Translations under genes and position numbers: made by a program | Shown: positions 1,187 through 57,969 of the stretch, piece after piece | How positions within the stretch are numbered: position 1 is the stretch's first letter | Layout: every line of letters begins with the position of its first letter | Source of the DNA: Actinomycetes bacterium | GTDB lineage: Bacteria; Actinomycetota; Acidimicrobiia; Acidimicrobiales; JAKAOS01 | NCBI GenBank assembly: GCA_021823165.1 | Contig: JAKAOS010000001.1 | Span: 4,543-68,542 of the forward strand | DNA: 64,000 bases | Direction of reading: 5' to 3' | Notes under the pieces: model-generated | Databases searched by the model: none | Told to the model about the DNA's origin: nothing | What the model saw: only the letters and a program-made list of their open reading frames with translations

Positions 1187-1340
1187 ACCGCCGGGGCCGG
1201 CTGGGCAGTGGCCGTGAGGCGGCCGTCTCGGAGCTGTTATCATAACTTCACTCACGAAGCGGGCCTCGGCCCGGTCTCTGCGAGCGGGCCAGCGTCGTCC
1301 CGGGTCGGCAGGGTCTCGACTCTGACGGGGGATTCAACCC

Positions 1341-37543: not shown

Positions 37544-37555
37544 GGAGTTGGTCAT

Positions 37556-39876: not shown

Positions 39877-41101
39877 GCTGTTGGCAGTTGGCCGGATCAC
39901 AGACCTTGACGCCCTCGGCCCCGCCGAGACACTGGAGTCCTATGTCGGGCGCGGTGGTTATGAGGGGTTGCGCAGGGCGTTGTCGATGGAACCCGAACAG
40001 ATCACCGCCCAAGTGGACCAGGCCGGCGTCGTCGGCCGGGGGGGAGCGGGATTCCCCGCCGCGGCCAAATGGCGCATGGCTGCGGCCAATCCCGGCCCTC
40101 GTTACCTGGTGGTAAACGGAGCCGAAGGCGAACCCGGCTCCTACAAGGACCGCCATCTGATGGCCCGGGCGCCGCACCAGGTGTTGGAGGGCATCGCCAT
40201 AGCCTCCAGGGCGATAGGTGCAACCACGGCGGTTGTGTATGTAAACAGGCTTTTTGCAAAAGCGGGAGCCGCCCTGGAGGCGGCCGCTGGGGAACTGGGT
40301 TCCAGTGATTTGGCAAAGGCCCTCCCGAAGCTCTCGGTTCGGGTGGAGCACCATGTCTACATTGCGGGCGAGGAGACCGCGCTGCTTGCCGCCCTCATCG
40401 GCCGGCCGCCCTGGCCCTGGCCAAAGCCCCCCTATCCCGCCGAGCGCGGGCTGTATGGATCACCCACGGTGGTGAACAATGTCGAGACTCTGGCACATGT
40501 CTCGGCGGTGCTGCGTCTCGGGCCGGCCTGGTATCAAAACCAACGCCCCATTCTTTTCTCCGTCACCGGGGATGTCTCCACTCCGGTCGTGGTCGAGTCG
40601 AGCCTCGGGGTGAGCCTGGAATCGCTTTTGTCCCAGGCGGGGGGAGTGATGAGGGGCGACGAGGTAGCGGGGGTGCTGCCTGGGGGTTACTCCCTGCCGT
40701 GGTTGGGGGCCGACCAGTTGGGACTCGCCATGGATCCAGTGGCCCTGGCCGAGGCTGGCACCGGGCTCGGGGCTTCGATCATCGTGGTCGGACGGCGCCG
40801 GGGGCTTGGTTCTGCAGCGGCGGCCATTGCGGCATTTTTCGCCCGGGAAACCTGCGGCACCTGCCCAATCTGTGTCACCGGCACCGCGCGTCTGGCCGAG
40901 GCCATGGCGGCGGGAGTCGACAGTGGCTTGGTGCCAGAGAGGGCGGAGGCGGTCGAAAGCCTGGCTGCGGAGCACCGCCACCGGGGTATCTGCACCCTGT
41001 TGGACACAGCAGCGGCCATGGCCCAGAGCGCAGCGCCGAGGCTGGTTTCCCATGGTCGCAGGGCTGGCGCATTTACTCCCATGGCAACAAAGCAAAGCTG
41101 A
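39869..41101 (+). CDS. NuoF-like NAD(H)-binding FMN/[4Fe-4S] flavoprotein (orphan, no NuoE/G nearby)
   Basis: 'GRGGAGFPAAAKW', 'NGAEGEPGSYKDRHLM' and 'ETCGTCPIC...GICTLLD'. ATG 39869 overlaps the beta-subunit stop by 8 nt. Confidence 0.85.
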   Translation: MSELLAVGRITDLDALGPAETLESYVGRGGYEGLRRALSMEPEQITAQVDQAGVVGRGGAGFPAAAKWRMAAANPGPRYLVVNGAEGEPGSYKDRHLMARAPHQVLEGIAIASRAIGATTAVVYVNRLFAKAGAALEAAAGELGSSDLAKALPKLSVRVEHHVYIAGEETALLAALIGRPPWPWPKPPYPAERGLYGSPTVVNNVETLAHVSAVLRLGPAWYQNQRPILFSVTGDVSTPVVVESSLGVSLESLLSQAGGVMRGDEVAGVLPGGYSLPWLGADQLGLAMDPVALAEAGTGLGASIIVVGRRRGLGSAAAAIAAFFARETCGTCPICVTGTARLAEAMAAGVDSGLVPERAEAVESLAAEHRHRGICTLLDTAAAMAQSAAPRLVSHGRRAGAFTPMATKQS

Positions 41102-41163
41102 GCAGGCCCAGGTCGCCGTCTTGGCCAGTGGGCTTGGTAGGTGCCGGTACTAGATTGGCCCAG

Positions 41164-42345
41164 ATGTCTCGGTCCTCATCCCAGCAAGTAGCGGTCATCG
41201 GGGCGGGCGTGATCGGTCTGTCCGTCGCCTGGGAGTTGGCCACATCGGGTCTCGGGGTGACAGTTGTTGACCCCGCTCCCGGTTCTGGAGCTTCGGGGGT
41301 GGCCGCCGGAATGCTCGCGGCGGTCACCGAGGCTCACTTCACCGAACCCGATCTGGCGGGGGCGAACGTGTTGTCCCTGTCGCTGTGGCCGGGATATGCA
41401 TCCAGGCTGGAGGCCGCTTCGGGGATGGTGGTCGGCTTGGAGAGGGCCGGAACTCTGGTGGTGGCCGGTGATCCCTCAGACCGGGATGCCCTGGCGCAGC
41501 TGGGCCGTTTTGTGAACTCCATCGGCCTTGAGGCCGAGTGGATCGGGGCCAGGGAACTTCGCAGGCGAGAACCGCTACTGTCGCCGAATCTCACCGGGGC
41601 CCTTTTTGCTCCCGGCGACTACAGCGTCAACAACCGATCCCTTCATGCTGCGTTGCTGGCGGCGTGCAAGACGGCGGGAGTGGACTTTGTGCAGGAGGCT
41701 GCATCGGGGGTCGCCACATCGGATGCCACGGCGATAGGTGTCACCATCTCCGGCGGGGAGCTGATCGCTGCGGAGTGGGTTGTGGTTGCGGCCGGGGCCT
41801 GGACCGCGGGGATATCGGGCCTGCCCCTTTCGCTGACCTCCGCTCTGCGGCCGATAAAGGGCCACATCCTGCGGTTGTCGCCCACCGAACGGGCCGGCCC
41901 TCTTCCTCTTTTGTCCCACACGGTGCGGGGATTGGTCAACGGCCGCCCGGTCTATTTGGTTCCCCGCGCGGACCGAGAGTTGGTCCTGGGGGCCACCAGC
42001 GAGGAACGCGGCTTTGATTTGCGCAAAGAGGCAGGGAGCGTCGGGGACCTGTTGCAGGACGCCAGGGCCGTGCTGCCGGCCATAGATCACTGCGAACTGA
42101 CCGAGATCGGGGTGGGGTTGCGGCCGGGGTCCTTCGACAACGCTCCGGTGGTGGGCAGGGTGGGACCCAGGGGACTGGTGGCGGCCTGCGGGCATTACCG
42201 CAACGGCATCCTCCTAGCGCCCCTCACCGCCGAGTTGGTTGCCGACGAGATCCTCGGGAACAGCCGCCACAGCATCCCATCCTTTTTGCCCTCCCGGCTG
42301 GTCGAGCGAAAGAATCCAGCACTCCAGGAGGGGGGCCTTGGCTGA
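41164..42345 (+). CDS. thiO: Glycine oxidase
   Basis: 'VAVIGAGVIGLSVAWELA' FAD motif. It sits in thiO-thiS-thiG-thiD order. Start set at the internal ATG of ORF 40699..42345. Confidence 0.85.
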   Translation: MSRSSSQQVAVIGAGVIGLSVAWELATSGLGVTVVDPAPGSGASGVAAGMLAAVTEAHFTEPDLAGANVLSLSLWPGYASRLEAASGMVVGLERAGTLVVAGDPSDRDALAQLGRFVNSIGLEAEWIGARELRRREPLLSPNLTGALFAPGDYSVNNRSLHAALLAACKTAGVDFVQEAASGVATSDATAIGVTISGGELIAAEWVVVAAGAWTAGISGLPLSLTSALRPIKGHILRLSPTERAGPLPLLSHTVRGLVNGRPVYLVPRADRELVLGATSEERGFDLRKEAGSVGDLLQDARAVLPAIDHCELTEIGVGLRPGSFDNAPVVGRVGPRGLVAACGHYRNGILLAPLTAELVADEILGNSRHSIPSFLPSRLVERKNPALQEGGLG

Positions 42346-42373
42346 ACCGAGCGCGGATAGGGGTGGATCAGAG

Positions 42374-44293
<1,920 letters not shown>

Positions 44294-44697
44294 AAACAAC
44301 GGTCCGGGGGTGATGACAGCACCCGTTTGGCCGCGATGCCACCCCTGGGTTGGTGCATGGTTGTAAACGAAGCCGGTCCCTGAAGCGAACCCTTGGGCAC
44401 CCAGGTGCCGCGATCCCGCCCCTGTCGTCATGTTCCCAAAGGCGTCTATTGCCTCGCCGGTATCGAGTCTCTTGGGCACCTGTACTGGGCACATGGCCCA
44501 GCTGCCGAGGCGGAGCGCTCGGGCCCCATTGGCTGGGAGCCCGATCTGGGGCCGTCTCGGGCGGTGGTGGCGGGGAGTAGATGGACACGCGGCGTTAACA
44601 GGGGAGAAATGATGCGTTTCCTTGGAGGAACCAAAGTTGCTGATGTGATGGTCCCGAGGAGGGGCCAGCGGATGTCAACCGTTTCCCAGGAGAGGTC

Positions 44698-46083
44698 ATG
44701 TCAGCCAGCGATCCCGCAGCTTCTGTCAACCCGGTTCCCACCACTGCAGAGGAACTCGCCGCGGCCGTAGAACGTGACGGGGTGGAGTTCATGCTCGCGA
44801 TGTTTGTGGACATGCATGGAAAACCCTGTGCCAAACTGATTCCCGCCTCATCGGTGGAAGAGACCGCCAAATCTGGTGCGGGCTTTGCGGGCTTTGCGGC
44901 CGGCGCACTGGGCCAGACCCCGGCCGATCCCGACCTTGCGGCCATTCCCGATCCCCGTTCCTACACGGTGCTGCCGTGGAAGCCGGAGGTGGCCGTGGTC
45001 CAGTGCGACCCGACGGTGGGGGGAGAACCCTGGCCCTTTGCCCCCAGGGTGATCCTGGGCAGGCGCCTTGCCGCTTTGGCGGAGCGTTCGATGACTCTCA
45101 TGTGCGGAGCGGAGGCGGAGTACTTCTTGGTGCGCCGTTCGCCCGAGGGAGAGGTGATCCTCGCCGACGACCAGGACAGCGCAGCCTCCCCCTGTTACGA
45201 CGTTCGCGGCCTCATGCGGATGTATGACCACCTTGCTGCGGTGTCGCGGCATCTGAACTCTTTGGGTTGGGGCAACTACGCAAACGACCACGAGGATGCC
45301 AACGGGCAGTTCGAACAGAACTTTCGGTATGCAGATGCCATGACGACCGCGGACAGGCTCGTGCTCTTCCGATACCTGGTCCACTCCCTGGCCGAGGAGG
45401 CGGGCATGGAGGCGACCTTCATGCCCAAACCATTTTCGAACCTGACCGGCAACGGCTTGCACGTTCATTTGAGCCTTTGGTCCCACCAGGGCGATGAGCT
45501 CTTCGTGGATCCCGATGACCCCCGGGGCCTCGGGGTTTCTGGTCTTGGCTATCAGTTCATTGCAGGAATGCTGCAGCATGCTCGCTCCGCCGCCGCCATT
45601 ACCTGCCCCACGGTGAACTCCTACAAGCGCATGGGGGCCGGCCCTCCCCTGTCCGGTGCCACATGGGCACCTGCATATGTCGCCTATGGGGGCAACAACA
45701 GAACACACATGTTGCGGATCCCCGAACCCGGCCGGGTCGAGAACCGGGCGGTGGATGGGCTGGCAAATCCCTATCTCGCCTTTGCCGTGCTCCTGGAGGC
45801 CGGCCTCGACGGAGTCGACAGGGGACTGGACCCCGGGGAGCCGAATACCGCGAACCTCTTCGAGGCTGGCGTTGCAGACAAGGCGGGGCTTGGCTCCCTC
45901 CCCCCGACGCTGCTGCATGCCGCCGATGAACTGGTGAAAGACGACGTGCTGCGTTCCGCCCTCGGCAAGACCCCCCGCGGGGAGTACATCGACTACTACG
46001 CAGAGCTCAAGCGGCAGGAGTTCTTTGCGTATCACTCTCAGGTCAGTTCATGGGAGATCGATACCTATCTTTCCCGGGTCTGA
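44698..46083 (+). CDS. Glutamine synthetase-family protein, gamma-glutamyl-amine (GmaS/PuuA-like) synthetase candidate
   Basis: 461-aa GS catalytic-domain pattern with 'GAEAEYFL', 'HEDANGQFEQNF', 'ATFMPKP', 'GNGLHVHLSLW' and 'NRTHMLRIP'. Confidence 0.88.
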   Translation: MSASDPAASVNPVPTTAEELAAAVERDGVEFMLAMFVDMHGKPCAKLIPASSVEETAKSGAGFAGFAAGALGQTPADPDLAAIPDPRSYTVLPWKPEVAVVQCDPTVGGEPWPFAPRVILGRRLAALAERSMTLMCGAEAEYFLVRRSPEGEVILADDQDSAASPCYDVRGLMRMYDHLAAVSRHLNSLGWGNYANDHEDANGQFEQNFRYADAMTTADRLVLFRYLVHSLAEEAGMEATFMPKPFSNLTGNGLHVHLSLWSHQGDELFVDPDDPRGLGVSGLGYQFIAGMLQHARSAAAITCPTVNSYKRMGAGPPLSGATWAPAYVAYGGNNRTHMLRIPEPGRVENRAVDGLANPYLAFAVLLEAGLDGVDRGLDPGEPNTANLFEAGVADKAGLGSLPPTLLHAADELVKDDVLRSALGKTPRGEYIDYYAELKRQEFFAYHSQVSSWEIDTYLSRV

Positions 46084-46167
46084 GTTGTCTCTAAAGAAAC
46101 GAAGTAGTATGCTAGGAAACATTGCTGGCTCGGATCAGGGGATCGCCAGCCGATCGAGGAGGCGCCT

Positions 46168-47070
46168 ATGTGCGGAATAGCCTGCCTGTTGCTGAAGGAC
46201 GACTCACTGCAAAGTCGTCTTGGTGAGCTGATGGTTCCCATGGTGCAGGCCATGGAGGAGAGGGGAGCAGACTCGGCGGGTATTGCGATCTTCGGCCCCG
46301 GGGAACCCGCAGGTCTTCGCTTCTCCCTTTTAGCCAAACCGGGTGTCAACTGGGAGGACCTGGCGGCAGATCTTGCCGGTGAAGTCGGCGCCGATGTCAC
46401 CCTGGGCCGTAGGGCAGGGGCGAATGGGACCATTGCGACTCTGTTATGTGACTCCGATCCCCTTGTTTTCTCCAAGGCCCTCGAGGCTGTGGTGCCCAGC
46501 GTGGCTCTTTTGGGCTGGGGCCGTTCGGTGGAGGTGCTGAAGGCCACCGGGGCACCCAGCCAGATGTGCGAGGAGTACGGCATTGGGAACCTGGCCGGCC
46601 ACATCGGCCTGGCGCATACCCGTATGGCTACGGAGTCCGCAGTGACCGCAGAGCATTCCCATCCCTTTGTCCCCAGCCAGGACCTGGCGATTGTCCACAA
46701 TGGGAGCTTTTCAAACCACGCGACCGTCCGAAGAAGGCTGGAGGCGGAGGGCATCAGACTCGACACCGACAACGACTCAGAGGTGGCCGCCCGCTTTTTG
46801 GCCCTGCGCCTGGGCGAGGGGGACTCCCTTGATGGAGCGGTTCGGCACCTGACTGTGGAGATGGACGGCTTTTTCACCCTCGTGGTCGCCACCGCAGATG
46901 AGATATCGGTCGTGCGGGACGCCTTTTCCTGCAAGCCCGCAGTGGTTGCCGAAACCGAAGATTACGTAGCGGTCGCCTCGGAGTACAGGGCTCTGGCGAC
47001 ACTTCCCGGAATCGAGTTGGCAAAGGTGTTCGAGCCGCAGCCCGAGGAGGTCTACACGTGGTCACGCTGA
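46168..47070 (+). CDS. Class-II glutamine amidotransferase-like protein (GltB N-domain homolog; MgsA/GlxB-like)
   Basis: Ntn start 'MCGIACLLLK' and 'GLAHTRMATES'. Confidence 0.85.
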   Translation: MCGIACLLLKDDSLQSRLGELMVPMVQAMEERGADSAGIAIFGPGEPAGLRFSLLAKPGVNWEDLAADLAGEVGADVTLGRRAGANGTIATLLCDSDPLVFSKALEAVVPSVALLGWGRSVEVLKATGAPSQMCEEYGIGNLAGHIGLAHTRMATESAVTAEHSHPFVPSQDLAIVHNGSFSNHATVRRRLEAEGIRLDTDNDSEVAARFLALRLGEGDSLDGAVRHLTVEMDGFFTLVVATADEISVVRDAFSCKPAVVAETEDYVAVASEYRALATLPGIELAKVFEPQPEEVYTWSR

Positions 47071-47750
47071 ACTGCGAGGGTGTGGGCACAAGGGAGATCA
47101 ACAGAACTCTCCAGTCCCTCCCCGAGGGTGCAACGGCGGTGCTGGAGGCCCCAGGTGGCCGCCACAACCTGGTGGTCGGCGTATCGGAGCCGATAAAAGT
47201 CCAGGTGATGGGCAACGCGGGTTACTACCTGGGTGGCCTGTGCGGCTCCAAGGACGCAACGGGTCTCGAAATCAGGGTGAAGGGGTTCACTGGCTGGGGA
47301 ACCGGTGAGAACCTGATGGGCGGCACCATCGTGGTGGAGGGCAGTGTCTCTCAGAGCACCGGCGCCTCGGCCAGGGGTGGGCTGATTGTGGTGGAGGGTG
47401 ACGCATCGCTGCGCACGGGCATCTCGCTCAAGGGGGCCACCATCGCCGTCGCAGGAGACAGCGGGGCGATGACGGGCTTCATGGCCCAGGCCGGGACCAT
47501 CCTCATTGGCGGGGACGCCGGGCACGCCCTTGGGGACTCATTGTTCGAAGCGGTCATCTATGTGGCGGGGCGTATTCGCTCCCTGGGCGCCGACGCCCGG
47601 ATAGAGGACCTGACAGAGGAGGACGTTGCTGCGGTGAAGAACCTCGTGGAAAAGGCGGGATTCGACCATATCTCGCCCGGCGATGTGACAAGGGTTGCAT
47701 CTGCCAAGCAGCTTTACCACTTCCGCTCCGAGCACCGGGGGATCTACTGA
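47058..47750 (+). CDS. GXGXG-motif protein (GltB C-domain homolog; MgsB/GlxC-like)
   Basis: Beta-helix repeats 'GNAGYYLGG', 'MGGTIVVEGS', 'RGGLIVVEGD' and 'GTILIGGDAG'. 13-nt overlap with the upstream gene. Confidence 0.85.
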   Translation: MVTLNCEGVGTREINRTLQSLPEGATAVLEAPGGRHNLVVGVSEPIKVQVMGNAGYYLGGLCGSKDATGLEIRVKGFTGWGTGENLMGGTIVVEGSVSQSTGASARGGLIVVEGDASLRTGISLKGATIAVAGDSGAMTGFMAQAGTILIGGDAGHALGDSLFEAVIYVAGRIRSLGADARIEDLTEEDVAAVKNLVEKAGFDHISPGDVTRVASAKQLYHFRSEHRGIY

Positions 47751-49096
47751 TGAAAACCGCTCCCGAACCGCACAACCACAGCTTCCCCAAAGAGGTGATC
47801 GGCCGGATACACGAAATGGCCGAGAGCGGAAACTACGTGATCCGGGGCCTGGGGGCGAGGCGGCGCCTGCCAAGCTTCGATGACCTGAGCTTTCTCACCG
47901 CGTCCGCTTCCCGATACCCCCTCGAGGGCTATCGGGAGCAGTGCAGCACCCAGACGGTGCTGGGGGCACGCAATGGTGCCAAGCCCATCGTGTTGGACAT
48001 ACCAATCACCATTGCCGGCATGAGCTTTGGCGCCCTGTCGGCCTCGGCTAAAGAGGCCCTGGGTAGGGCGGCGAGTGCGGTTGGGACGTCTACCACCACA
48101 GGCGATGGCGGCATGACCCCAGAGGAGCGCAAGGCATCGGCCAAACTCGTCTACCAGTTGCTCCCCTCCCGCTACGGCTTCGATCCGGGGGATCTCCGCC
48201 AGGCCGATGCGGTGGAGATCGTGATCGGCCAGGGTGCCAAGCCCGGAGGCGGTGGCCTCCTTCTGGGCCAGAAGGTCGACGAGAGGGTGGCCTCGATGCG
48301 GACTTTGCCCGCCGGGATCGACCAGCGCTCCGCCAGCCGGCACCCCGATTGGGTCGGCCCCGATGACCTGCAAATCAAGATCGAGGAGCTCCGGGAGGCC
48401 ACTGGGGGTGAGATCCCGGTTTATGTGAAGATTGGTGCCACCAGGGTTACCCACGACGTCAAGCTGGCGATAGCTGCTGGAGCCGACGTCGTTGTGGTCG
48501 ATGGAATGCAGGGCGGAACAGCCGCCACCCAGGAGGTCTTTATCGAGCACGCCGGGATCCCGACCCTCCCCGCGGTTCGTTTGGCCGCCGAGGCCATTGC
48601 CGATGCCAATGTCGATGGCGAGGTTCAGCTGATTGTCTCGGGAGGAATCCGCTCCGGCGCGGATGTCGCCAAGGCACTAGCCCTGGGCGCCGATGCGGTC
48701 TCTCTTGGTGTCGCATCCTTGGTGGCATTGGGTTGCAATCGCGGGCACTACCAAAGCCCACTGGGCAAGCTTGTGGACCTCGAGGCCGACTACAGGGCGA
48801 TTGGCACCAGGCCGGGGGAGTGCGCCCACTGCCACACCGGGCTCTGCCCGGTCGGTATTGCAACCCAGGAGCCGGCCCTTGAGCAACGATTGGACGTGGA
48901 GGCGGCCGCGGAGCATGTTGCCAACTTCCTGCGCGCCACCACCATGGAGGTGACCGCCATTGCCAGGGCATGTGGGAAATCCGACGTGCATCACCTGGAG
49001 CCGGAGGATTTGGTGGCCCTGAGCATCGAGGCCGCTGCGATGGCGAGGGTTCCACTGGCAGGCACCGACTGGATCCCGGGAATGGGTAGGCCGTGA
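47750..49096 (+). CDS. FMN-binding glutamate-synthase-family protein (GltB central-domain homolog; MgsC/GlxD-like)
   Basis: 'GAKPGGGGLLLG', 'VVVVDGMQGGTAA', 'VSGGIRSGADVAKALALGADAV' and '[13 protein letters not shown]'. TGATG junction with the upstream gene. Confidence 0.88.
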   Translation: MKTAPEPHNHSFPKEVIGRIHEMAESGNYVIRGLGARRRLPSFDDLSFLTASASRYPLEGYREQCSTQTVLGARNGAKPIVLDIPITIAGMSFGALSASAKEALGRAASAVGTSTTTGDGGMTPEERKASAKLVYQLLPSRYGFDPGDLRQADAVEIVIGQGAKPGGGGLLLGQKVDERVASMRTLPAGIDQRSASRHPDWVGPDDLQIKIEELREATGGEIPVYVKIGATRVTHDVKLAIAAGADVVVVDGMQGGTAATQEVFIEHAGIPTLPAVRLAAEAIADANVDGEVQLIVSGGIRSGADVAKALALGADAVSLGVASLVALGCNRGHYQSPLGKLVDLEADYRAIGTRPGECAHCHTGLCPVGIATQEPALEQRLDVEAAAEHVANFLRATTMEVTAIARACGKSDVHHLEPEDLVALSIEAAAMARVPLAGTDWIPGMGRP

Positions 49097-49129
49097 CCGG
49101 CACGAACCTGAGAAACAATCCTTATAAGT

Positions 49130-50317
49130 GTGGTTGCCGTGGCTGAACAAGATCGGGCAGTGATCATCGTCGGCGGGGGCATAGAGGGCCTTTCGATCGC
49201 CCGGGCGCTCGCCGCCCGGGGCGTCGGGCCGGTGACCCTTTTGGAGCGGGCCCACTTGGCTTCGGGCATGACCAGCAAGTCAAGTGGGGTAGTGCGGTGC
49301 CACTACGGGGTGGAATCCCTTGCTGCGATGGCTTGGCGTTCCGTCGGCATCCTGGAGGACTTGGGCATGGCGGCGGGATTTCGCCAGGTCGGCTATGTCG
49401 TTGGAGTTGGCGAGCAAAACACCGTTGCCCTCAAGGCAAATGTGGCCACACAGCAGGCACTCGGCATAGAAGTGGAGCTCATAGACCACGGCAAGGCAGC
49501 CGAGCTGTGGCCCCATGCCAAACTCGACGACTTCGCCGGCTTCGCCTACGAACCCCGCGGCGGTTACGGCGACGGCTACCAGACGGCGCAGAGCTTTGCA
49601 TCCCAGGCAAAGGATCTGGGCGCCGAACTGCGGCGGAAGACAGCTGTGGAGTCCCTTGTTCACTCCGCCGGGGAGATCACCGGTGTCGCCTTGGCAGACG
49701 GCAGCGTCATCAGGGCGCCAAAGGTGGTGGTTGCGGCCGGCATGCATAGCTCGGCACTCATGCAACCTTTGGGTATCGCGGTACCCCTCCGAGCGCAGTT
49801 GGCGCCCATCTTCCTGGTGGACCCCGGGCAGAGAACCGGAGCCATCCCGGTTCTTTCGGACTTGGTTTCTCTGCAGTATGTAAGGCCCGACGGAGCGGGC
49901 TCGCTGCTCATGGGTGGGAGCGACCACAACAACCCCACCTGGGTGGACCCAGACCGCTACCCGACGGGGCCCACGTGGGCCCACATGTCTGATGCCCTAT
50001 CCAAATTCGAATACCGCTTCCCAAAACTCACCGGAGCGTCCGTAGTCTCCTCCTACACCGGCTATTACGACGTAACCCCCGACTACAACCCGGTCATATC
50101 AGCCACCCCAATTGCGGGTCTGTATCTGGCGGCTGGATTCAGTGGTCATGGTTACAAGATCTCGCCGGCCGTAGGGGAGCTTATGGCGGATTTGATCTGT
50201 TGTGGGGAAAGCCAGTATCCCGGCATTGATCACAAAGATTTCCAGCTCCAACGCTTTGTTGAGAAACGACCGTTGCTGAGCCCGCACCCCTACGTGGGTG
50301 CCGGCGAGATGCGCTGA
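49130..50317 (+). CDS. FAD-dependent oxidoreductase (DAO / sarcosine-oxidase-beta-like)
   Basis: 'VIIVGGGIEGLSIARALAARG' and a C-terminal 'GFSGHGYKISPAVG'. Confidence 0.85.
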   Translation: MVAVAEQDRAVIIVGGGIEGLSIARALAARGVGPVTLLERAHLASGMTSKSSGVVRCHYGVESLAAMAWRSVGILEDLGMAAGFRQVGYVVGVGEQNTVALKANVATQQALGIEVELIDHGKAAELWPHAKLDDFAGFAYEPRGGYGDGYQTAQSFASQAKDLGAELRRKTAVESLVHSAGEITGVALADGSVIRAPKVVVAAGMHSSALMQPLGIAVPLRAQLAPIFLVDPGQRTGAIPVLSDLVSLQYVRPDGAGSLLMGGSDHNNPTWVDPDRYPTGPTWAHMSDALSKFEYRFPKLTGASVVSSYTGYYDVTPDYNPVISATPIAGLYLAAGFSGHGYKISPAVGELMADLICCGESQYPGIDHKDFQLQRFVEKRPLLSPHPYVGAGEMR

Positions 50318-50390
50318 GGGGGCCGAGGCGTGAAGGTGGGTGAGCTTGGGTCCTGTGCCAGAGACCCGGTCGCAGTTAGCATCTGTTGGC

Positions 50391-51062
50391 ATGGCCAAAG
50401 ACCTGGACAAGGGGAACCGCCGCCGCGTGCCCGAGGAAGGGGAGATCGAGCAGGAAACGGGGGAGGGGTCCTCCTCCGACCCCGAAGCTGGCGAAGCAAC
50501 AATGAAACAGCTCGGCTGGGTAATCGGGCACCACGTGCAGGCACGCAGGACCGAACTCGGCCAGACCGTCAGCCAGGTAGCGGACCGTGCGGGGATATCC
50601 AAGGGGATGCTCTCCAAGATAGAAAACGCCCATACCTCTCCCAGCCTGAGTACCCTTGCCCGCATCGCTGCGGCACTGGACATGCCACTTACTGCTCTTT
50701 TCCGTGGACTGGCGGAAGAAAGGGACGCCGTCTTTGTGAAGGCGGGGGCGGGCCCGGAGATAATCCGCCAGGGCACCAGGGCCGGACATCACTATCGCCT
50801 GCTGGGCAGCCTGCGCGGCCAGGAGCACAAGGTGGAGCCACTTCTGGTAACCCTGGAGGAACCCGCCGAGGTCTTTCCCCTGTTCCAACACAACGGCGTG
50901 GAGATCCTCTACATGCTCCAGGGCGTAATGGATTATGGCTATGGGACCCAGCACTACAGGATGTGCCCGGGCGACACCCTGCAGTTCGAGGGCGACATCA
51001 CCCATGGACCCAGCGCACTGGTCGAGTTACCGATCCGGTTTCTTTCGATCACGATCTTCTGA
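50391..51062 (+). CDS. XRE-HTH plus cupin transcriptional regulator (PuuR-like architecture)
   Basis: HTH 'LGQTVSQVADRAGISKGMLSKIENAHTSPSLSTLARIAAAL' and a C-terminal cupin 'GVEILYMLQG...PGDTLQFEGDITHG'. The start is ambiguous: 50340, 50391 or 50502. Confidence 0.8.
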   Translation: MAKDLDKGNRRRVPEEGEIEQETGEGSSSDPEAGEATMKQLGWVIGHHVQARRTELGQTVSQVADRAGISKGMLSKIENAHTSPSLSTLARIAAALDMPLTALFRGLAEERDAVFVKAGAGPEIIRQGTRAGHHYRLLGSLRGQEHKVEPLLVTLEEPAEVFPLFQHNGVEILYMLQGVMDYGYGTQHYRMCPGDTLQFEGDITHGPSALVELPIRFLSITIF

Positions 51063-51198
51063 GCGAACACCGCCCGGCTTCAACCAGAGCGGGCCGAGCT
51101 GCTCAACCCCGGGCGTTGGCAAACGCTTCACGCCCGCTGAGGGGTCAACTTTGTTTACCCGCGCTCAACCATCACGAAACAAAGCTGAAATCTTAAAT

Positions 51199-51219
51199 AA
51201 ATAGCCTATAGGTAAATAG
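51199..51219. promoter_or_regulatory. AAATAG-CCTATAGG-T-AAATAG element in an AT-rich spacer (candidate operator/promoter)
   Basis: 8-bp perfect palindrome CCTATAGG (51205-51212) flanked by direct AAATAG repeats, ~130 nt upstream of the DUF3445 gene. The row 51181-51240 hand-counts to 19/60 GC. Confidence 0.2.
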
Positions 51220-51341
51220 ATGACACAAGGTCAAACCGTTCTATGAGGCCTACATACTTCACGGCTATTACAGCCTGAGCTGCCGAGTTCTGAATTTGGC
51301 ATTGCGGCCAGGAAGGTTGCTGTTCCACAACGCTCGGGCCG

Positions 51342-52343
51342 GTGTTTGAGGCGACCCGTTCACGACAGGCGAAAGATCCTCCATTGACGATTTCCCAAAG
51401 CTTTCCTTTCCCTTTCGATTCCGACGAATATCGATACAGCATCAATTTGCGGCGGTCCGATGAGGCTCCGGTCGTGGTTGACGACTGGTATCTGGCCGAG
51501 ATAACCGAGCGCCGGTCCCTCCTCGACGAAGCGCACAGCCGCTGTTTCCAGGCCGAACCATGGACGATGCAGGCGCAGTGGGAGGTGCTCAGCTTGTGCC
51601 TCGCCGCCCTGGCGACCCAGGCGCCGGAGCACTTCAGGCTGGATATTCACGGGGAACGATGCGAGTTCGAGAATCGCCTTTCCGGAGAAATCCTCCGTTT
51701 CCGCATGTGGGATGACATGACCCTGGATTGCCAGCCCCTGGACCTCGCCGGCAGACACGTGCAGGAGGACCTCATACTCCTTGCCCAGAGGGAGGACGAC
51801 CTCTTCCTCGATGCCGGATCGGTGTGCTTCCCCGCCAACTGGTCCTTCCCCTTCGACGCAGGCATGAGCTACACCCAGATCCACTCCCCGGTCCCTTACT
51901 TCGGCAAACATTTGGCACCCAAGGCTCAGGCGTTTTTGGAGCGGATCCAGGCCTACGAGCAGTGGCAGCGCCTGAACTGGACCATGACGGTTAAGAGACG
52001 GTTGGATACCTCGGCGGAGAAGTACCACATCTGGCAGCCTGACTCTTTGGGTCTCGATCTCGACAACGTGGGTCGGCTTGTGCATTTGCGGGTCGAGGTC
52101 CAAAAGTTCGTCCGGCTTCCGGTGAGCAACCTCCTTTTGTTCACCATCCATACCTATATGCAGCCACTCGAAGAAATCGTGGGGAATCCAGAGTGGACCA
52201 GCCGGCTGGAGGCGGTGATGGCAAGCCTCCCAGACACCGTCGCAGAGTATAAAGAAATTGCACATTACAAGGATTTAGTTATCCAATACTGTGCAAAGCA
52301 AAGCTATCCCAGTGCCAAAGAGCTGGTCAGCAGGTCCAACTAA
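51342..52343 (+). CDS. DUF3445 / haem-dependent oxidative N-demethylase alpha-subunit-like protein
   Basis: 333-aa ORF. The N-terminal 'FPFPFDSDEYRYSINL' and overall length fit my recollection of DUF3445, and a PDR-type reductase lies in the same operon. The family call is from memory only. Confidence 0.7.
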   Translation: MFEATRSRQAKDPPLTISQSFPFPFDSDEYRYSINLRRSDEAPVVVDDWYLAEITERRSLLDEAHSRCFQAEPWTMQAQWEVLSLCLAALATQAPEHFRLDIHGERCEFENRLSGEILRFRMWDDMTLDCQPLDLAGRHVQEDLILLAQREDDLFLDAGSVCFPANWSFPFDAGMSYTQIHSPVPYFGKHLAPKAQAFLERIQAYEQWQRLNWTMTVKRRLDTSAEKYHIWQPDSLGLDLDNVGRLVHLRVEVQKFVRLPVSNLLLFTIHTYMQPLEEIVGNPEWTSRLEAVMASLPDTVAEYKEIAHYKDLVIQYCAKQSYPSAKELVSRSN

Positions 52344-52425
52344 CACTCCGAGGCGGACTAACACCTCGGGCCGAGTCAACACCTTGGATCCAACTTACAC
52401 CTCGGATCCAACTTACACCTCAGTA
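52336..52425 (+). repeat. Five tandem copies of an 18-nt unit (consensus CCAACTNACACCTCGGAT)
   Basis: Units at 52336, 52354, 52372, 52390 and 52408. The last two share 15 of 18 positions within the unit frame; shifted by 4 nt (52386-52403 and 52404-52421), the two copies are identical over 18 nt. The array starts over the stop codon of the DUF3445 gene. Confidence 0.9.
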
Positions 52426-52479
52426 GGTCTATCAGAACCAAGTGAACCAATCCCCATGTCATTACTAAGAAAGGAGCAG

Positions 52480-52872
52480 ATGATGGAAACCAGCACCATA
52501 GTTGAGGCACCAGGCATAACGCTGCTAAAGGCGGGAACTCTTGGCTTGCATGAACTCGAGGACCGGATGGGCATTCCCGGGTTGCGGTCGCAGATTGCCG
52601 ACATACCGGTGAGCCTGGGGGAGTTACCGCTGACAGCCGGGCGCTTTGCCATGCAGAAGTCCGTCGACTTTCCCTACGTGTATACGTATCTGGAAGTCAA
52701 GGTTGTGGTTACGGGCAAGATCATTGTCCGCGACGAAGCAGGCACGCGTTATGTCGGGGAGCCCGGCGATATCTTTATTTTCCGGCCCACGACCACCGTC
52801 ATATTTGACAAGGAAAGTGACGGCACCGCGGTGTATGTGGGGCATCGCATTCAGGACCCGGACTTTAGCTAG
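52480..52872 (+). CDS. Cupin-domain protein (EutQ-like)
   Basis: AAGGAG (52471-52476) precedes ATGATG. Cupin core 'YTYLEVKVVVTGKIIVRDEAGTRYVGEPGDIFIFRP'. Confidence 0.7.
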   Translation: MMETSTIVEAPGITLLKAGTLGLHELEDRMGIPGLRSQIADIPVSLGELPLTAGRFAMQKSVDFPYVYTYLEVKVVVTGKIIVRDEAGTRYVGEPGDIFIFRPTTTVIFDKESDGTAVYVGHRIQDPDFS

Positions 52873-52898
52873 ATCGTCGCCGGCCAGAGGATTCAGAC

Positions 52899-53474
52899 AT
52901 GACTCGCGATCTGACAACGGGGGAGACCCTGGCTGGACGGATTGAAAAGGTCCAGTTTCAGGCCGAAGAACCTCTGATTGTTTGTTTTTCGGACAGACTC
53001 GGAGGTTCTTCGGAACAGTTGCGCTCTGGCGGGCTGAGCCTGGGTGGGTCTTTGGCCACCGTGGGTTTGGCAGATCTAGATTGGCGCAGCTGTGCCGAAT
53101 CCATAGAGCCGGTGGCTGAAGCCCTTGGCCGCCTTGTCATGGGGACGAGGCTGATCTTGGCAACGGGGCCCGACTGGGCCTGCCTGCTGGAGGAGGCCGC
53201 CATGGTCGGCGGGTTCGATCTGGGAATGATCGAACGGAGCGAAGAGGGCGATTCTTCCCTTCGGATCTACTGCGCGCCATGTTCCTCAGTGGTTTGCCAA
53301 ACAGAGTTGGCCAAGGGCCAAAGGCGGTTGCAGTGCATATCGTGTGGATCCTGGATCGAGGTGTCTGGCCACTACTCCCGGCGTTTACGGGCCTATTTGG
53401 CCGTGGGCGTTCCCATGTTGGTAGATGAGAGACAAGCGTTGGTGGCGGGCCCGAAGTCCATGGCAAAGACGTGA
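52899..53474 (+). CDS. DmmA-like protein: degenerate FNR-type NAD domain plus C-terminal CxxC-X17-CxxC ribbon
   Basis: 'GTRLILATGPDWACLLEEAAMVGG' resembles the GP-containing NAD-domain end of ferredoxin reductases. It also has 'CAPC...CISC'. The family name is recalled, not verified. Confidence 0.55.
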   Translation: MTRDLTTGETLAGRIEKVQFQAEEPLIVCFSDRLGGSSEQLRSGGLSLGGSLATVGLADLDWRSCAESIEPVAEALGRLVMGTRLILATGPDWACLLEEAAMVGGFDLGMIERSEEGDSSLRIYCAPCSSVVCQTELAKGQRRLQCISCGSWIEVSGHYSRRLRAYLAVGVPMLVDERQALVAGPKSMAKT

Positions 53475-54439
53475 GGGCAAATCGGCCAGCCACCCAACGG
53501 CTCCGCATCGTAGGCCTGGGGAGCGAAGGTTCTGTTGTAAGGCTTGTGCATCTGGAGAGGGTGGGCAAAGAGCCCGTGGCGGCATTCGGCCCAGGTGCCC
53601 ACATAACAACCGAACTGCCCACCGACCAGGGAGTGCTTCGCCGGTCGTATTCCTTGACGGGGGATCCGAGGGCCACCAAGACGTACTCCATAGCCGTTGC
53701 CCGCTCTACTGCATCCGACGGTGGTGCCGCGTTTTGGCATCGGAGGGCTCGCGTCGGTGACGTCATCGAGGCGAGTTTGCCCCGCAACCAGTTTTCCCTG
53801 GCCCCAAAGGCCACCCATCACATTTTCTTGGCGGGCGGGATTGGCATCACGCCGTTTATCCCAATGCTATATCAGCTGCGCCAACAGAAGCGTTCGGCAG
53901 AACTGCACTATATGGCTCGCACCAAACAAGAAGCGGCCTTTAGGTCTCTGCTGGAACGCGAGTTCGGCGACCAGACCACGATCTACTTCACAAGGGAGGG
54001 CGCAAGCGACAGGTTTGATGCCGCGGGACTTAAGAAGGCTCCGATAGGTTCCCATCTCTATCTCTGTGGGCCACGAGGAATGGTTGACGCCTATCGGCTA
54101 AAGGCATTCGAGGTCGGGTTCCCAGATACCAGGGTGCATCGAGAACTGTTTCAAGCCGGCCAAGCCGGGACGGGTAAAGCATTTACGGCTCATCTTGCCA
54201 AGAGCAACAAAACTATTGCCGTCGGTGAGAAAGAAACATTGCTCGATGCAATCGAACGGGAGGGGGTTGAGATCCCGAGTTCGTGCAGGATCGGCGGATG
54301 CGGAAGCTGCCTCGTAGAGGTGCTGGAGGGAGCGCCGGATCATCGGGATGACTACTTCTCTAAGGGCGATAGGAGCGATCAGCAGATTCTTCCGTGCGTA
54401 TCCCGCACGTCGGGTGATTTGTTGGTTCTCAATATCTGA
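53471..54439 (+). CDS. PDR/VanB-type oxidoreductase (flavin + NAD(P)H + plant-type 2Fe-2S)
   Basis: 'RRSYSL', 'LAGGIGITPF', 'LYLCGPRGM' and a C-terminal 'CRIGGCGSCLVEV...LPCVS'. GTGA overlap with the upstream gene. Confidence 0.88.
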   Translation: MRANRPATQRLRIVGLGSEGSVVRLVHLERVGKEPVAAFGPGAHITTELPTDQGVLRRSYSLTGDPRATKTYSIAVARSTASDGGAAFWHRRARVGDVIEASLPRNQFSLAPKATHHIFLAGGIGITPFIPMLYQLRQQKRSAELHYMARTKQEAAFRSLLEREFGDQTTIYFTREGASDRFDAAGLKKAPIGSHLYLCGPRGMVDAYRLKAFEVGFPDTRVHRELFQAGQAGTGKAFTAHLAKSNKTIAVGEKETLLDAIEREGVEIPSSCRIGGCGSCLVEVLEGAPDHRDDYFSKGDRSDQQILPCVSRTSGDLLVLNI

Positions 54440-54589
54440 ATAGCACTTCATTTCAATCTCACCAGCCACGTTAGGAACTGAAACGAGTGGACCGGTGGTT
54501 TGTATCGGTCAGATCCCCATGGGAACTGACATTTAGACGTAACTGATATCCGACAGGTGGCTCAGTAATTATCGAGAGGGTGATATGCC

Positions 54590-56056
54590 ATGATGGAAAG
54601 CGAACTCCTCCGAGAACGGGAGGAAAAGGAGCATTATAAACGAACGCTTGTCAAAAGCGTGCGTTGGTATGACGGGGTGATCCTCATAGGCTTCGGCGTG
54701 CCTGGTCTGCTGTATCCGAGCGTGGGTTCCTCCGTGGTCGCCCTGGGGGCACTTGGGGCGGCTGTGGTCTGGGCCCTGTCGGCAATAATCGGTAAGTTCC
54801 AGGCCAACATGGTCTCGGAAGTAGCCGCGATGTTCCCCGAAAAAAGCGGCGGCATCGGGATATTGGCATCCGAGGGAATCAGCAGGTATGGCAAGCCTTT
54901 TGGTGCGCTGGCGGCCTTTGCCTACTGGTTCGGTTGGACCATTGTCATGGCCATCAACGGCGTGTTGGTGGGCGACTACATCAAGGCGACGATCTGGCCA
55001 TCGGCCTCGCCCGAGTTGCTGGGCACCGTGATGCTGGTGCTGCTCTACCTCTTCAACGTCTATGGCCTCAAGCCCGGCGTCTGGGCGGGGTATGCACTTG
55101 GGGTGGCCACGGTTGTCCCGATGGGGCTGATGATCGTCGGGGCGTTCTTCGGAGGGTCCTTCCACTGGGGTCATCTGGCCCAGGTCGCCCTACCCAATCA
55201 CATCGGCTGGACGTCGATGAAGGGATTGGGAGTGGTGCTTACGTGGATGTTCATTGTGGGGTGGAGCGCATATGGCACAGAGGCGGCGGCCACTCTCGCT
55301 CCGGAATACCACGACACCGTCCGGGATACGCCCAAGGCGCTGCGGGGTTCGGCGACCATAAGCATGGCCTTTTACGTGCTGATGCCCCTTGCGGCCGTCG
55401 GCGTACTCGGCATTAGCCAGATCCAGAAGAGCCCCTATACCGCATTTGCTCCCATGCTGGACAAGATCCTGGGCCCCGCTGCGGGTGGGGTGGTGATCAT
55501 AACGGTGCTGGCGTCTTTGGTGCTGTCGGCAAACCTGGCCACCATCGGTGGGTCCCGCACGCTTTACCAGGCGGCAAGGGATCGTCACATCCTTACGATC
55601 TTTGGGTACGTAAACAAGCGGGGGATCCCCGCCGCGGGCATGACGCTGGACCTGATCGTCAATGTTGCCTTCATCTGGGCACTGAAGAACCCCATTGCGA
55701 TCCTGGTTGCCTCCAACGTCGGCTACTTCGTGGCATGGATCTTGATGCTCGTATCCTTCGTGCTGCTGCGCAGGGACCGTAAGGACGTTGCGAGGCCGAT
55801 CAAGCTGAAGCCGGCGTGGGTCGGTGGAGGGGTGCTGCTGATCGCTTTGAACACCGTGTTCCTTATCGTGGGTGCGCCCTCCTATGGCGCCGGGCCCCTC
55901 CTGTTGGGTGTGGGCGTCCTGGCCCTGTCGATTGTGATGTGGGCGGTGCGCAACTACTTCGAGGAGCCTCGGAGAATGAAGCGGGCCACCCGGGTGCAGT
56001 GGGATACTCCCGATTCGGAGATCAACATCGAAGACGCCGGAGCCGAGGCCTCGTGA
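54590..56056 (+). CDS. APC-superfamily amino acid/amine permease
   Basis: 488-aa ORF with ~12 TM segments and APC-like segments 'VSEVAAMFPEKSGGIG' and 'FAYWFGW'. Confidence 0.85.
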   Translation: MMESELLREREEKEHYKRTLVKSVRWYDGVILIGFGVPGLLYPSVGSSVVALGALGAAVVWALSAIIGKFQANMVSEVAAMFPEKSGGIGILASEGISRYGKPFGALAAFAYWFGWTIVMAINGVLVGDYIKATIWPSASPELLGTVMLVLLYLFNVYGLKPGVWAGYALGVATVVPMGLMIVGAFFGGSFHWGHLAQVALPNHIGWTSMKGLGVVLTWMFIVGWSAYGTEAAATLAPEYHDTVRDTPKALRGSATISMAFYVLMPLAAVGVLGISQIQKSPYTAFAPMLDKILGPAAGGVVIITVLASLVLSANLATIGGSRTLYQAARDRHILTIFGYVNKRGIPAAGMTLDLIVNVAFIWALKNPIAILVASNVGYFVAWILMLVSFVLLRRDRKDVARPIKLKPAWVGGGVLLIALNTVFLIVGAPSYGAGPLLLGVGVLALSIVMWAVRNYFEEPRRMKRATRVQWDTPDSEINIEDAGAEAS

Positions 56057-57246: not shown

Positions 57247-57264
57247 AGGTGAAAGACACCTAGG

Positions 57265-57969
57265 GTGTCCAAAGACCCAGGCGCCAATCCAGTTGTGCCC
57301 AAAGGGAACCGATGGGCCGCCGATGGTGGCTTTGTGGACCTGACTCGCCCGGTGACCGAGGACATGGCCACATATCCCGGCGAACCTCCGGTAATGCTTC
57401 GCAGGTTGTACAACGGCCCCTTTGTCTCTTTCGAGATCTCTCTGTCCTCGCATGCCGGAACCAGCCTCGACACGCCGCTGCATGTGCAGCCCGATGGGGG
57501 AAAGAGCCTGGGCGCCTACGAAGTTTCCCGCTTCATCCTGGCTGCCACGGTCGCGCATCTGGATTTGGGCATGGACGAGGTGATCGACAAAGCCGCCATC
57601 TCGGGGGCACTCATGGGTGGCGCCGGTGCTGGGAGCCGGCCGGGGCGGTGTTTGTTGATCGATACCGGATGGGCCCGGCATTGGGGATCCCCCCGGTATT
57701 GGCGGCACCCATTTCTGGGACAGGATGCCGCCATGGCGATTGCCGAAAGCGATATTTCCCTGGTCGGCATCGACACCCCCAACGTCGATTCGACCATGCA
57801 AAACAAAAGCGTGGTCCACCGTGTGCTTTTGGGGGCCGACGTGTTGGTGGTGGAGAATCTTTGCAACCTGGACCTCTTGGACGGCAGCGGCCGGTCCTGG
57901 ACCCTTGCCTGCCTGCCGCTGTCGGTGCCATCCGCCGATGGCTCACCGGTCAGGGCGGTGGCCTGGTGA
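57265..57969 (+). CDS. Cyclase-family protein (kynurenine-formamidase-like fold)
   Basis: 'SSHAGTSLDTPLH' is a variant of HxGTHxDxPxH. Also 'IDTGW', 'LVGIDTPNVD' and 'VVENLCNLD'. Confidence 0.8.
   Translation: MSKDPGANPVVPKGNRWAADGGFVDLTRPVTEDMATYPGEPPVMLRRLYNGPFVSFEISLSSHAGTSLDTPLHVQPDGGKSLGAYEVSRFILAATVAHLDLGMDEVIDKAAISGALMGGAGAGSRPGRCLLIDTGWARHWGSPRYWRHPFLGQDAAMAIAESDISLVGIDTPNVDSTMQNKSVVHRVLLGADVLVVENLCNLDLLDGSGRSWTLACLPLSVPSADGSPVRAVAW

Follow-up and report, generated by a model that had tools for sequence, protein, structure and literature searches.

We analyzed a 64,000-nt stretch of DNA from an uncultured Acidimicrobiales bacterium (contig JAKAOS010000001.1; hereafter, the window), in which open reading frames (ORFs) and domains were assigned by ORF calling and by Pfam and NCBIfam profiles. 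Six ORFs, all on the + strand between positions 44698 and 51062, encode a glutamine synthetase (GS)-like protein (gmaS), three proteins that correspond to parts of the glutamate synthase subunit GltB (mgsA, mgsB and mgsC), a flavoprotein of the DAO family and an XRE+cupin regulator (Table 1). A first-pass annotation, made from the sequence alone, had proposed this order and these coordinates, and both were confirmed by the ORFs, by domain matches and by independent gene calls; the identical locus is present on five public contigs, including the NCBI metagenome-assembled genome (MAG) GCA_027320565.1, and independent gene callers agree. The same annotation had described the three middle genes as the separated Ntn, GXGXG and FMN domains of GltB, which was borne out: mgsA and mgsB overlap by 13 nt (47058-47070) and mgsB and mgsC by 1 nt (47750), and mgsA-mgsB-mgsC are translationally coupled via these overlaps. 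As it had also stated, a fused gltB coexists with the split set, and we found GltD alongside it. Since the window also encodes a complete GltB-GltD pair, the split set is not the housekeeping glutamate synthase (GOGAT). Judged from sequence, the locus is probably a methylated-amine catabolic island, in which dimethylamine and methylamine would be degraded via N-methylglutamate with one flavoenzyme as the last step.

Table 1. Features of the window discussed in the text, with the six-gene cluster first, then the genes downstream of it, then other features.
Feature	Position	Strand	Length	Domain matches and remarks
gmaS	44698-46083	+	461 aa	Gln-synt_C 306 bits; database label 'type III glutamate--ammonia ligase / glnT'
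mgsA	46168-47070	+	300 aa	Starts MCGIAC; class-II Ntn amidotransferase, Cys2; GATase_6 69.7 bits, GATase_7 55 bits
mgsB ('GlxC')	47058-47750	+	230 aa	GXGXG PF01493 36.5 bits (cut-off 32.5)
mgsC	47750-49096	+	448 aa	FMN-binding; Glu_synthase PF01645 305 bits
DAO-family FAD flavoprotein	49130-50317	+	395 aa	DAO PF01266 206 bits, full length
XRE+cupin regulator	50340-51062	+	240 aa (alternative start 50391, 223 aa)	HTH_3 47.3 bits, Cupin_2 31.8 bits
Intergenic region, AT-richer	51063-51341		279 nt	Inverted repeats
dmmC-like heme subunit (HODM alpha-like)	51342-52343	+		PF11927 224 bits
Small EutQ-like cupin	52483-52872	+		Cupin_3 21.5 bits, EutQ 20.8 bits, each slightly below the Pfam threshold
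dmmA-like	52899-53474	+		DmmA-like_C 33.7 bits; NF041259 DmmA family 48.9 (cut-off 60)
dmmB-like reductase	53471-54439	+		DmmA-like_N 44.5 bits, Fer2 (2Fe-2S) 59.1 bits
APC permease	54590-56056	+		AA_permease_2 145 bits; trimethylamine N-oxide (TMAO) permease NCBIfam 185 bits (cut-off 690), next model 49
ACAD-fold flavoprotein	56053-57246	+		Acyl-CoA_dh domains; Rv1679/FadE16 family 227 (cut-off 600); pathway membership uncertain
Cyclase/arylformamidase-family hydrolase	57295-57969	+		PF04199 78.9 bits; arylformamidase model 81.6 (cut-off 223); pathway membership uncertain
Leader between thiD and gmaS	44294-44697		404 nt	Intergenic; no element identified
Fused GltB	1341-5861			All four GltB domains; followed by GltD (5833-7302)
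Upstream genes, unrelated to the finding	36473-44293			2-oxoacid:ferredoxin oxidoreductase-like three-gene set, Nuo51-like flavoprotein, thiO-thiS-thiG-thiD

By profile scores and active-site residues, the synthetase is of the GmaS type, and neither GlnA nor PuuA. It scored 591.8 on the TIGR03105 model ('type III glutamate--ammonia ligase'; cut-off 469.6) and stayed below the cut-off on the GlnA (288 vs. 429) and PuuA (259 vs. 650) models. Its top matches in the Protein Data Bank (PDB) were RhGmaS (7cql, 414.8 bits) and 9qur, 'glutamate--methylamine ligase' (389.2 bits), compared with 236.7 bits for the best true GS and 89 bits for PA5508 (4hpp). We mapped its residues using the numbering of RhGmaS from Rhodovulum (PMC7948447). 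K30', Y147, D177, E179, E186, N188, R312 and R317 of RhGmaS are all kept, with the catalytic D177/E186/R312 corresponding to D197/E206/R335 in the window protein. Conversely, two residues that mark a true GS are replaced in the window protein and in 48 of 48 orthologs: the ammonium-site Asp50' by Ala64 (A48' in RhGmaS) and the Glu of the Glu-flap by Trp323 (W300 in RhGmaS). Six of the seven residues of the methylamine pocket (Y147, Q175, D177, E179, E186, N188 and K30') are retained, the exception being Q175, which is Ala195. This change, together with W189 to Phe (F209), was found in the window protein and in all 48 actinomycete orthologs, with the other pocket and catalytic residues kept, and we therefore regard the two substitutions as a trait of the lineage. 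The first-pass annotation had allowed that the protein might group with GlnA and retain an intact ammonium site; both the scores and the residues say GmaS instead.

The genes that follow gmaS resemble those of the canonical gmaS-mgsABC-mgdABCD pathway, as seen on a plasmid of Thioclava sp. FTW29. GmaS is 46% identical to the Thioclava protein, and MgsA, MgsB and MgsC are 43, 41 and 64% identical to those of Thioclava and 43, 42 and 65% identical to those of Methylobacterium DM1; the 64-65% range for MgsC is shared by Cupriavidus. A further likeness is that dimethylamine monooxygenase genes are linked to the canonical pathway in some genomes. The canonical pathway is found in Methyloversatilis universalis, Methylocella silvestris and Ruegeria pomeroyi. 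The Thioclava layout is HTH-mgsABC-gmaS-GlxA-soxB/D/A/G-purU, whereas the window lacks MgdABCD (whose subunits are homologs of sarcosine oxidase beta, delta, alpha and gamma), the folate-linked purU and the AraC/GlxA-type regulator TmaR.

In place of mgdABCD stands the DAO-family flavoprotein, a member of the DAO/GR2 superfamily with an N-terminal GxGxxG FAD-binding fold and a substrate domain. It scored below every curated cut-off, including those of SoxB/MgdA (TIGR01373, 122 vs. 529), MTOX (NF008425, 118 vs. 257) and MSOX-type proteins (TIGR01377, 113 vs. 480). Thioclava MgdA, with which it shares 22% identity, reaches 675 on the SoxB model. In a profile search, the sequence neighbors of the flavoprotein were the beta subunit of the L-proline dehydrogenase PDH1 (PDH1 beta; 1y56_B, 170 bits) and SoxB, the beta subunit of heterotetrameric sarcosine oxidase (140 bits). 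An AlphaFold2 model (pLDDT 86.4) matched the folds of 1y56_B (TM 0.84) and SoxB (TM 0.83), followed by DMGO/dimethylglycine dehydrogenase, MSOX, MTOX and opine dehydrogenase. These nearest folds act on proline, sarcosine, dimethylglycine, N-methyl-Trp and opines, i.e., they carry out C-N oxidation of N-substituted amino acids. R56, H340 and K343 are invariant in the flavoprotein clade and align with carboxylate-binding positions of MSOX, which we take to be R52, H345 and K348. The flavinylated Cys of MSOX (8-alpha-S-cysteinyl-FAD) aligns with Gly311, and the neighboring Cys of the clade is Tyr312 in the window. An argument from a conserved Cys to covalent flavinylation or oxidase character was dropped, as the Cys of the clade is displaced by one residue from the MSOX site and the window protein has Tyr there.

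Among characterized enzymes, MSOX (monomeric sarcosine oxidase) and MTOX/SolA (N-methyltryptophan oxidase) share with the flavoprotein a two-domain fold (TM 0.75-0.80) and the Arg and His/Lys positions that bind the carboxylate; each consists of one polypeptide and oxidatively demethylates N-methyl amino acids, releasing formaldehyde. They differ from it in their low identity (21-22%), in the family cut-offs that it misses and in the flavinylated Cys that it lacks. PDH1 beta and SoxB are the best matches in both sequence and fold; however, they work in hetero-oligomers with a second flavin-carrying subunit, and no partner gene is conserved here. We propose that the flavoprotein is a single-subunit N-methylglutamate oxidase/dehydrogenase, which would replace MgdABCD.

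To place the flavoprotein in its genomic context, one genome per species was scanned, which yielded relatives in 462 genomes, and the best 80 of the 462 loci were analyzed with 10 kb on either side. Of the clusters of neighboring ORFs, only representatives that resemble real proteins were scanned, given the spurious antisense ORFs found at high GC. All of the best 80 were from Actinomycetota, comprising Acidimicrobiales MAGs, Nocardia, Mycobacterium/Mycolicibacterium, Rhodococcus, Streptomyces, Williamsia, Actinomadura and Kutzneria. Of the 80 loci, 74 encode GmaS, MgsA, MgsB and MgsC within 10 kb of the DAO gene, and the genes are arranged in at least nine different orders. The six exceptions were two loci at contig ends, two with degraded gmaS matches and two that are real. 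In the latter, from Actinomadura (1185-6467 of its locus) and Kutzneria (20-4733), the DAO ortholog occurs with the alpha subunit of a Rieske oxygenase and another DAO protein of 443-444 aa, joined in Kutzneria by a 2Fe-2S reductase, and there is no gmaS or mgs; this set resembles one for demethylation of betaine or N-methyl amino acids. Using Thioclava queries, tblastn found no match to MgdB, MgdC or MgdD in the window, in the 80 loci or in the actinomycete plasmids described below, with the single exception of an ORF resembling GcvT in a Streptomyces locus (L075), and no SoxA, SoxD, SoxG or GCV_T Pfam domain was present in the window. Amt ammonium transporters flank the cluster in 12 loci, upstream of the DAO gene. 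Together, the distance from MgdA, which argues against orthology, the absence of MgdBCD and the synteny in 74 of 80 loci support the suggestion of the first-pass annotation that one flavoprotein, and not MgdABCD, may perform the last oxidative step. Its word 'monomeric' holds in the sense of one gene without a conserved partner subunit; a monomeric state does not follow from this.

Two further features were seen in loci from Acidimicrobiia, at about 6-7 kb and 12-16 kb of the locus. A gene for a Pyridox_ox_2 (PNPOx-like) protein lies between divergent gmaS and mgsA in 24 of them, and many of these loci carry one or two GS-like paralogs (26-37% identity) downstream of the regulator, with a class-I glutamine amidotransferase in 11. 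These genes may represent further gamma-glutamyl amine pathways.

A search started from GmaS led to three actinomycete plasmids. On the plasmid of Ca. Mycobacterium methanotrophicum, a cave methanotroph (NZ_CP097321; locus 11998-17492), a compact gmaS-mgsABC-DAO block lies between tyrosine recombinases/integrases and transposases, and looks like a mobile, self-contained module. The plasmids of Streptomyces sp. NBC_01320 (12001-18613) and Streptomyces sp. N50 (12001-18089) have, immediately after mgsC, the gene for an MSOX/MTOX-like oxidase that lies outside the DAO clade of the window, shares 25% identity with the window protein and scores 249 on the MTOX model (cut-off 257). On the NBC_01320 plasmid, the oxidase gene is immediately followed by one for S-(hydroxymethyl)mycothiol dehydrogenase. 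MgsB and MgsC of the N50 plasmid share 70 and 81% identity, respectively, with their Methylobacterium counterparts, a closeness from which we conclude that there has been transfer between phyla.

The closest relatives of the DAO protein outside Actinomycetota form a sister clade on plasmids of Burkholderiaceae (31-38% identity; 184 bits, vs. 89 for MgdA). In Cupriavidus metallidurans BS1 (p1), Paraburkholderia sprentiae WSM5005 and Burkholderia sp. FXe9, the DAO gene adjoins XRE-gmaS-mgsABC. The order there begins with DAO, the genes for the electron transfer flavoprotein (ETF) beta and alpha subunits, HutD and ETF:QO, and continues with LysR-hutG and then XRE-gmaS-mgsABC; in P. sprentiae and Burkholderia sp. 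FXe9, an ammonium transporter gene follows mgsC. No mgdABCD was found within 11-13 kb on the three plasmids. These clusters, which appear to be undescribed, thus share with the window XRE-gmaS-mgsABC and a single DAO gene for a 395-aa protein without mgdABCD, but differ in having ETF, HutD, ETF-QO and LysR-hutG, genes that both the window and the actinomycete loci lack. P. phymatum has the DAO gene with those for ETF alpha/beta near a HutG-like gene (116 vs. 279 bits), and no gmaS nearby. The context of the Burkholderiaceae DAO-ETF module suggests that it acts on an N-substituted glutamate. As to the electron acceptor, the ETF/ETF-QO of the sister clade suggests, by analogy, a dehydrogenase, and the MSOX/MTOX analogue an oxidase.

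The regulator belongs to a family that is found with gmaS/mgs genes in more than one phylum. It is 51% identical to the protein encoded at the head of the Thioclava cluster and 45% identical to those of Methylobacterium and Cupriavidus, all of which adjoin gmaS/mgs, and a homolog is present in 70 of the 80 actinomycete loci. We therefore take the XRE+cupin protein to be a conserved cross-phylum part of gmaS/mgs clusters and a putative pathway regulator. Since canonical clusters carry the same family, the regulator does not mark the variant. The first-pass annotation had called it PuuR-type, and the HTH_3+cupin architecture of PuuR, which regulates gamma-glutamyl-putrescine catabolism, is indeed present; however, the protein is not a PuuR ortholog (39.1 vs. 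211 bits on the PuuR equivalog model NF007408), its true relatives are the gmaS/mgs regulators and the architecture is not distinctive for this locus. The regulator described for Ruegeria is the AraC/GlxA-type TmaR (PMC13390433), and we found no characterization of the XRE+cupin regulator in the literature.

The cluster is followed, after a 279-nt gap, by five further + strand genes that the first-pass annotation had missed, encoding DmmC-like, cupin, DmmA-like and DmmB-like proteins and a permease (51342-56056). Their products are 41% (DmmC), 27% (DmmA) and 35% (DmmB) identical to those of Methylobacterium DM1, on whose plasmid dmmABC directly adjoins mgsABC-gmaS. The start at 51342 was favored for the dmmC-like gene because the tblastn match to DmmC begins at 51402. 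DmmABC is an experimentally established dimethylamine monooxygenase, with DmmD as a separate GcvT-type folate-binding subunit that is dispensable for activity in Escherichia coli (PMC5520151). Compared with that DmmDABC system, to which the heme-dependent oxidative N-demethylase HODM is kin by Pfam family naming, the window has dmmC, dmmA and dmmB, but in the order C-cupin-A-B instead of D-A-B-C, with an extra cupin gene between dmmC and dmmA and without DmmD; neither Pfam nor tblastn found a DmmD/GcvT-like ORF in the window. EutQ-like cupins are mentioned beside methylated-amine genes in Arthrobacter and Mycobacterium in passages of McTaggart et al. 2015 (PMC5023230), and for the small cupin encoded at 52483-52872 no homolog was detected at the other loci with dmm genes that we examined. 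Genes for DmmB- and DmmC-like proteins are also close to the cluster in Nocardia, Williamsia, Rhodococcus and Streptomyces, and dmm-like genes are near it in about 7 of the 80 loci.

APC permeases with 26-32% identity to that of the window flank gmaS in 48 of the 80 loci, and the permease of the window, whose one strong NCBIfam hit is the TMAO permease of Methylocella, probably imports a methylated amine or an amine oxide. The gene that follows it, encoding an ACAD-fold protein, overlaps the permease gene by 4 nt; this gene and the adjacent hydrolase gene (56053-57969) were found on no contigs other than those of this organism, and the pair could serve formamide cleavage upstream of dimethylamine. 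The first-pass annotation had held that the substrate of the pathway is not deducible from sequence, a view that the downstream genes amend at the level of substrate class: a DmmABC-like set and a TMAO-permease-like transporter point to methylated amines. Because of these neighbors, we take the amine to be methylamine, derived in part from dimethylamine.

In the pathway that we propose, the permease would import the substrate, and the DmmABC-like heme/flavin/FeS monooxygenase would convert dimethylamine to methylamine. With ATP, GmaS would join methylamine to glutamate to form gamma-glutamylmethylamide, from which MgsABC would produce N-methylglutamate, releasing ammonia for assimilation, and the DAO flavoenzyme would oxidize the N-methyl C-N bond of N-methylglutamate to restore glutamate. 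In the Mgs reaction, gamma-glutamylmethylamide and water give N-methylglutamate and NH3, so that glutamate is consumed unless N-methylglutamate is demethylated. A self-contained module needs this demethylation, and the single flavoenzyme is the only conserved candidate in the clusters. Because there is neither a GcvT/SoxA-type partner nor DmmD, we expect free formaldehyde, and not methylene-tetrahydrofolate, to be the form in which the C1 unit leaves, and the mycothiol-formaldehyde dehydrogenase gene next to one Streptomyces module fits formaldehyde release.

Other explanations were weighed against this proposal. We consider it rather unlikely that the adjacent DAO protein is an accessory enzyme, i.e., an oxidase of sarcosine or another N-methyl amino acid or a detoxifying enzyme, and that an unlinked SoxBDAG-type MgdABCD demethylates N-methylglutamate. 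Precedent for such an arrangement comes from the methylamine-using Mycobacterium sp. 141 and 155: in passages of McTaggart et al. 2015 (PMC5023230), both have gmaS-mgsABC, and soxBDAG-like genes elsewhere in their genomes are taken as MgdA-D, with no mention of an adjacent FAD oxidoreductase in those passages, which were found by keyword. Our view spans 64 kb here and 10 kb on either side elsewhere, which leaves room for such genes, and the two DAO orthologs in a Rieske-oxygenase context without gmaS also favor the accessory role. It is countered by the synteny, which repeated rearrangement has left intact in 74 of 80 loci, by the mobile five-gene module bounded by integrases and by the two other single-gene flavoenzymes that independently fill the same slot in Streptomyces and Burkholderiaceae. 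Moreover, actinomycete SoxBDAG clusters are ordinarily sarcosine oxidases of creatine/betaine catabolism. A primary amine other than methylamine (for example, ethylamine, ethanolamine or a similar small alkylamine) is an improbable substrate, although the Q175-to-Ala and W189-to-Phe substitutions in the window and in all 48 GmaS orthologs, the acceptance of ethylamine and propylamine by RhGmaS (PMC7948447) and the scarcity of dmm-like genes among the 80 loci would all suit it; the DAO protein would then dealkylate an N-alkylglutamate, and the Dmm neighbors would be secondary. What speaks for methylamine is that DmmC/A/B-like genes and the TMAO-permease-like transporter adjoin the cluster in the window, that GmaS retains all its other pocket and catalytic residues, that Mycobacterium strains isolated on methylamine carry the same genes, according to passages of PMC5023230, and that the mycothiol-formaldehyde dehydrogenase gene follows the module on one Streptomyces plasmid.

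A third possibility concerns the methyl group itself. The DAO protein might carry out, or start, a four-electron oxidation of N-methylglutamate to N-formylglutamate, from which an amidohydrolase (HutG, or one of the M20 carbamoylase or formamidase type) would produce glutamate and formate without free formaldehyde. Hydrolase genes that could serve this end do occur: all three Burkholderiaceae gmaS clusters encode, next to the DAO-ETF operon, a HutG that scores 356 bits on the N-formylglutamate deformylase equivalog model (cut-off 279), and the HutG-like gene near the DAO-ETF genes of P. phymatum, although below the cut-off, could be counted with them. In addition, an amidohydrolase of the M20 hydantoinase/carbamoylase family, which passes the 'allantoate amidohydrolase' model, is encoded directly after mgsC in 14 Nocardia/Williamsia loci (at about 15.5-16.8 kb of most of them), and an arylformamidase-family hydrolase in the downstream operon of the window. 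However, these hydrolases come from three families that are unrelated to one another and could act further upstream, e.g., from formamides to amines; the gene after one Streptomyces module encodes a formaldehyde dehydrogenase instead; and no such hydrolase was found in the Acidimicrobiia loci, which make up most of the 80, or in the Ca. M. methanotrophicum module. To our knowledge, no DAO-family enzyme converts an N-methyl to an N-formyl group. Because most loci lack such a hydrolase gene, we give this route little weight. We attach next to no credence to the idea that a type III GS (GlnT) and a split glutamate synthase (GlxBCD) assimilate ammonium here beside an unrelated oxidoreductase. The synthetase does pass TIGR03105, and RefSeq labels its homologs glnT and 'protein glxC', but the label 'type III glutamate--ammonia ligase' is a misnomer, since a crystallized and kinetically characterized GmaS bears the same name in the PDB. 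The ammonium-site Asp50' and the Glu of the Glu-flap are Ala and Trp in this synthetase (PMC7948447), and these active-site residues, together with the full GltB-GltD pair in the window, led us to reject a GSIII with an alternative GOGAT.

Several points also weigh against the proposed pathway directly. The 80 loci were chosen via the DAO protein, so that they show that DAO goes with gmaS/mgs and not the converse, and the function proposed for the DAO clade is argued from sequence comparison. As the Rieske context of two orthologs indicates, the substrate range within the clade may vary, and the Q175-to-Ala and W189-to-Phe substitutions mean that the amine specificity of the actinomycete GmaS may differ from that of the marine enzyme. 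A mycothiol-formaldehyde dehydrogenase gene, sought as a general neighbor, lies beside the module in one locus only. The weightiest reservation is that an unlinked soxBDAG-type enzyme may exist beyond the 10-kb flanks of the loci and the 64-kb window and perform the last step instead.

With these reservations, the arrangement would be a new variant of the N-methylglutamate pathway that recurs across the sampled species of Actinomycetota. A broader claim, to which we give an even chance, is that there is a second, folate-independent N-methylglutamate pathway in which MgdABCD has been replaced more than once: by the PDH-beta/SoxB-like clade of Acidimicrobiia, Nocardia, Mycobacterium and relatives, by the ETF-coupled sister clade of Burkholderiaceae and by the MSOX/MTOX-like oxidase of Streptomyces. 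According to PMC5023235, every microbe that has the N-methylglutamate pathway carries mgdD. The full-text literature that we searched, outside which many subscription journals lie, yielded no papers on a methylglutamate oxidase or demethylase or on methylglutamate combined with electron transfer flavoprotein and methylamine, and no description of gmaS/mgsABC with a single flavoenzyme in Actinobacteria.

GC content is about 64% overall but drops to 0.57-0.59 over positions 50000-56000, which hold the regulator, dmm and permease genes, vs. 0.62-0.67 elsewhere, and the dmm genes fail a GC3 filter that nearly all others pass. This drop and the GC3 failure suggest a later acquisition of the dmm-permease unit than of the gmaS-mgs-DAO unit. 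The interval 51063-51341, which contains inverted repeats, among them one of 12 nt with 92% complementarity (51145-51156 / 51177-51188), is probably the promoter/operator of the dmm-permease unit; a search for repeats in intergenic sequence found only short ones of low identity. In the leader upstream of gmaS (44294-44697), there was no sigma-70-like promoter site, and terminator-like sites did not exceed the shuffled expectation. No Rfam match at E<=0.1 was obtained in this 404-nt leader or across 40-58 kb, and no TPP riboswitch at E<=0.1 in the scanned part (40000 onward). Further downstream, a gene at 59109-61466 encodes a fused CofH-type protein with two radical-SAM domains, which is presumably the FbiC form typical of actinomycetes, and the close homologs of the window's genes are all from Actinomycetota.

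Environmental methylamine turnover is tracked by gmaS and mgd genes. If one small flavoenzyme performs the last step in Actinomycetota, calls of pathway completeness for these bacteria would be wrong, and relatives of the enzyme are present in 462 species genomes, many of them Acidimicrobiales MAGs. The methyl carbon would then leave as free formaldehyde, or possibly as formate, and not as methylene-tetrahydrofolate. The proposal would also assign a gene to a type of activity that has lacked one, that of a single-subunit N-methylglutamate oxidase/dehydrogenase, and such a one-gene enzyme may be useful for biosensing or for engineering the metabolism of N-methyl amino acids. If the proposal is true, the pathway would offer a clean case of repeated non-orthologous replacement.

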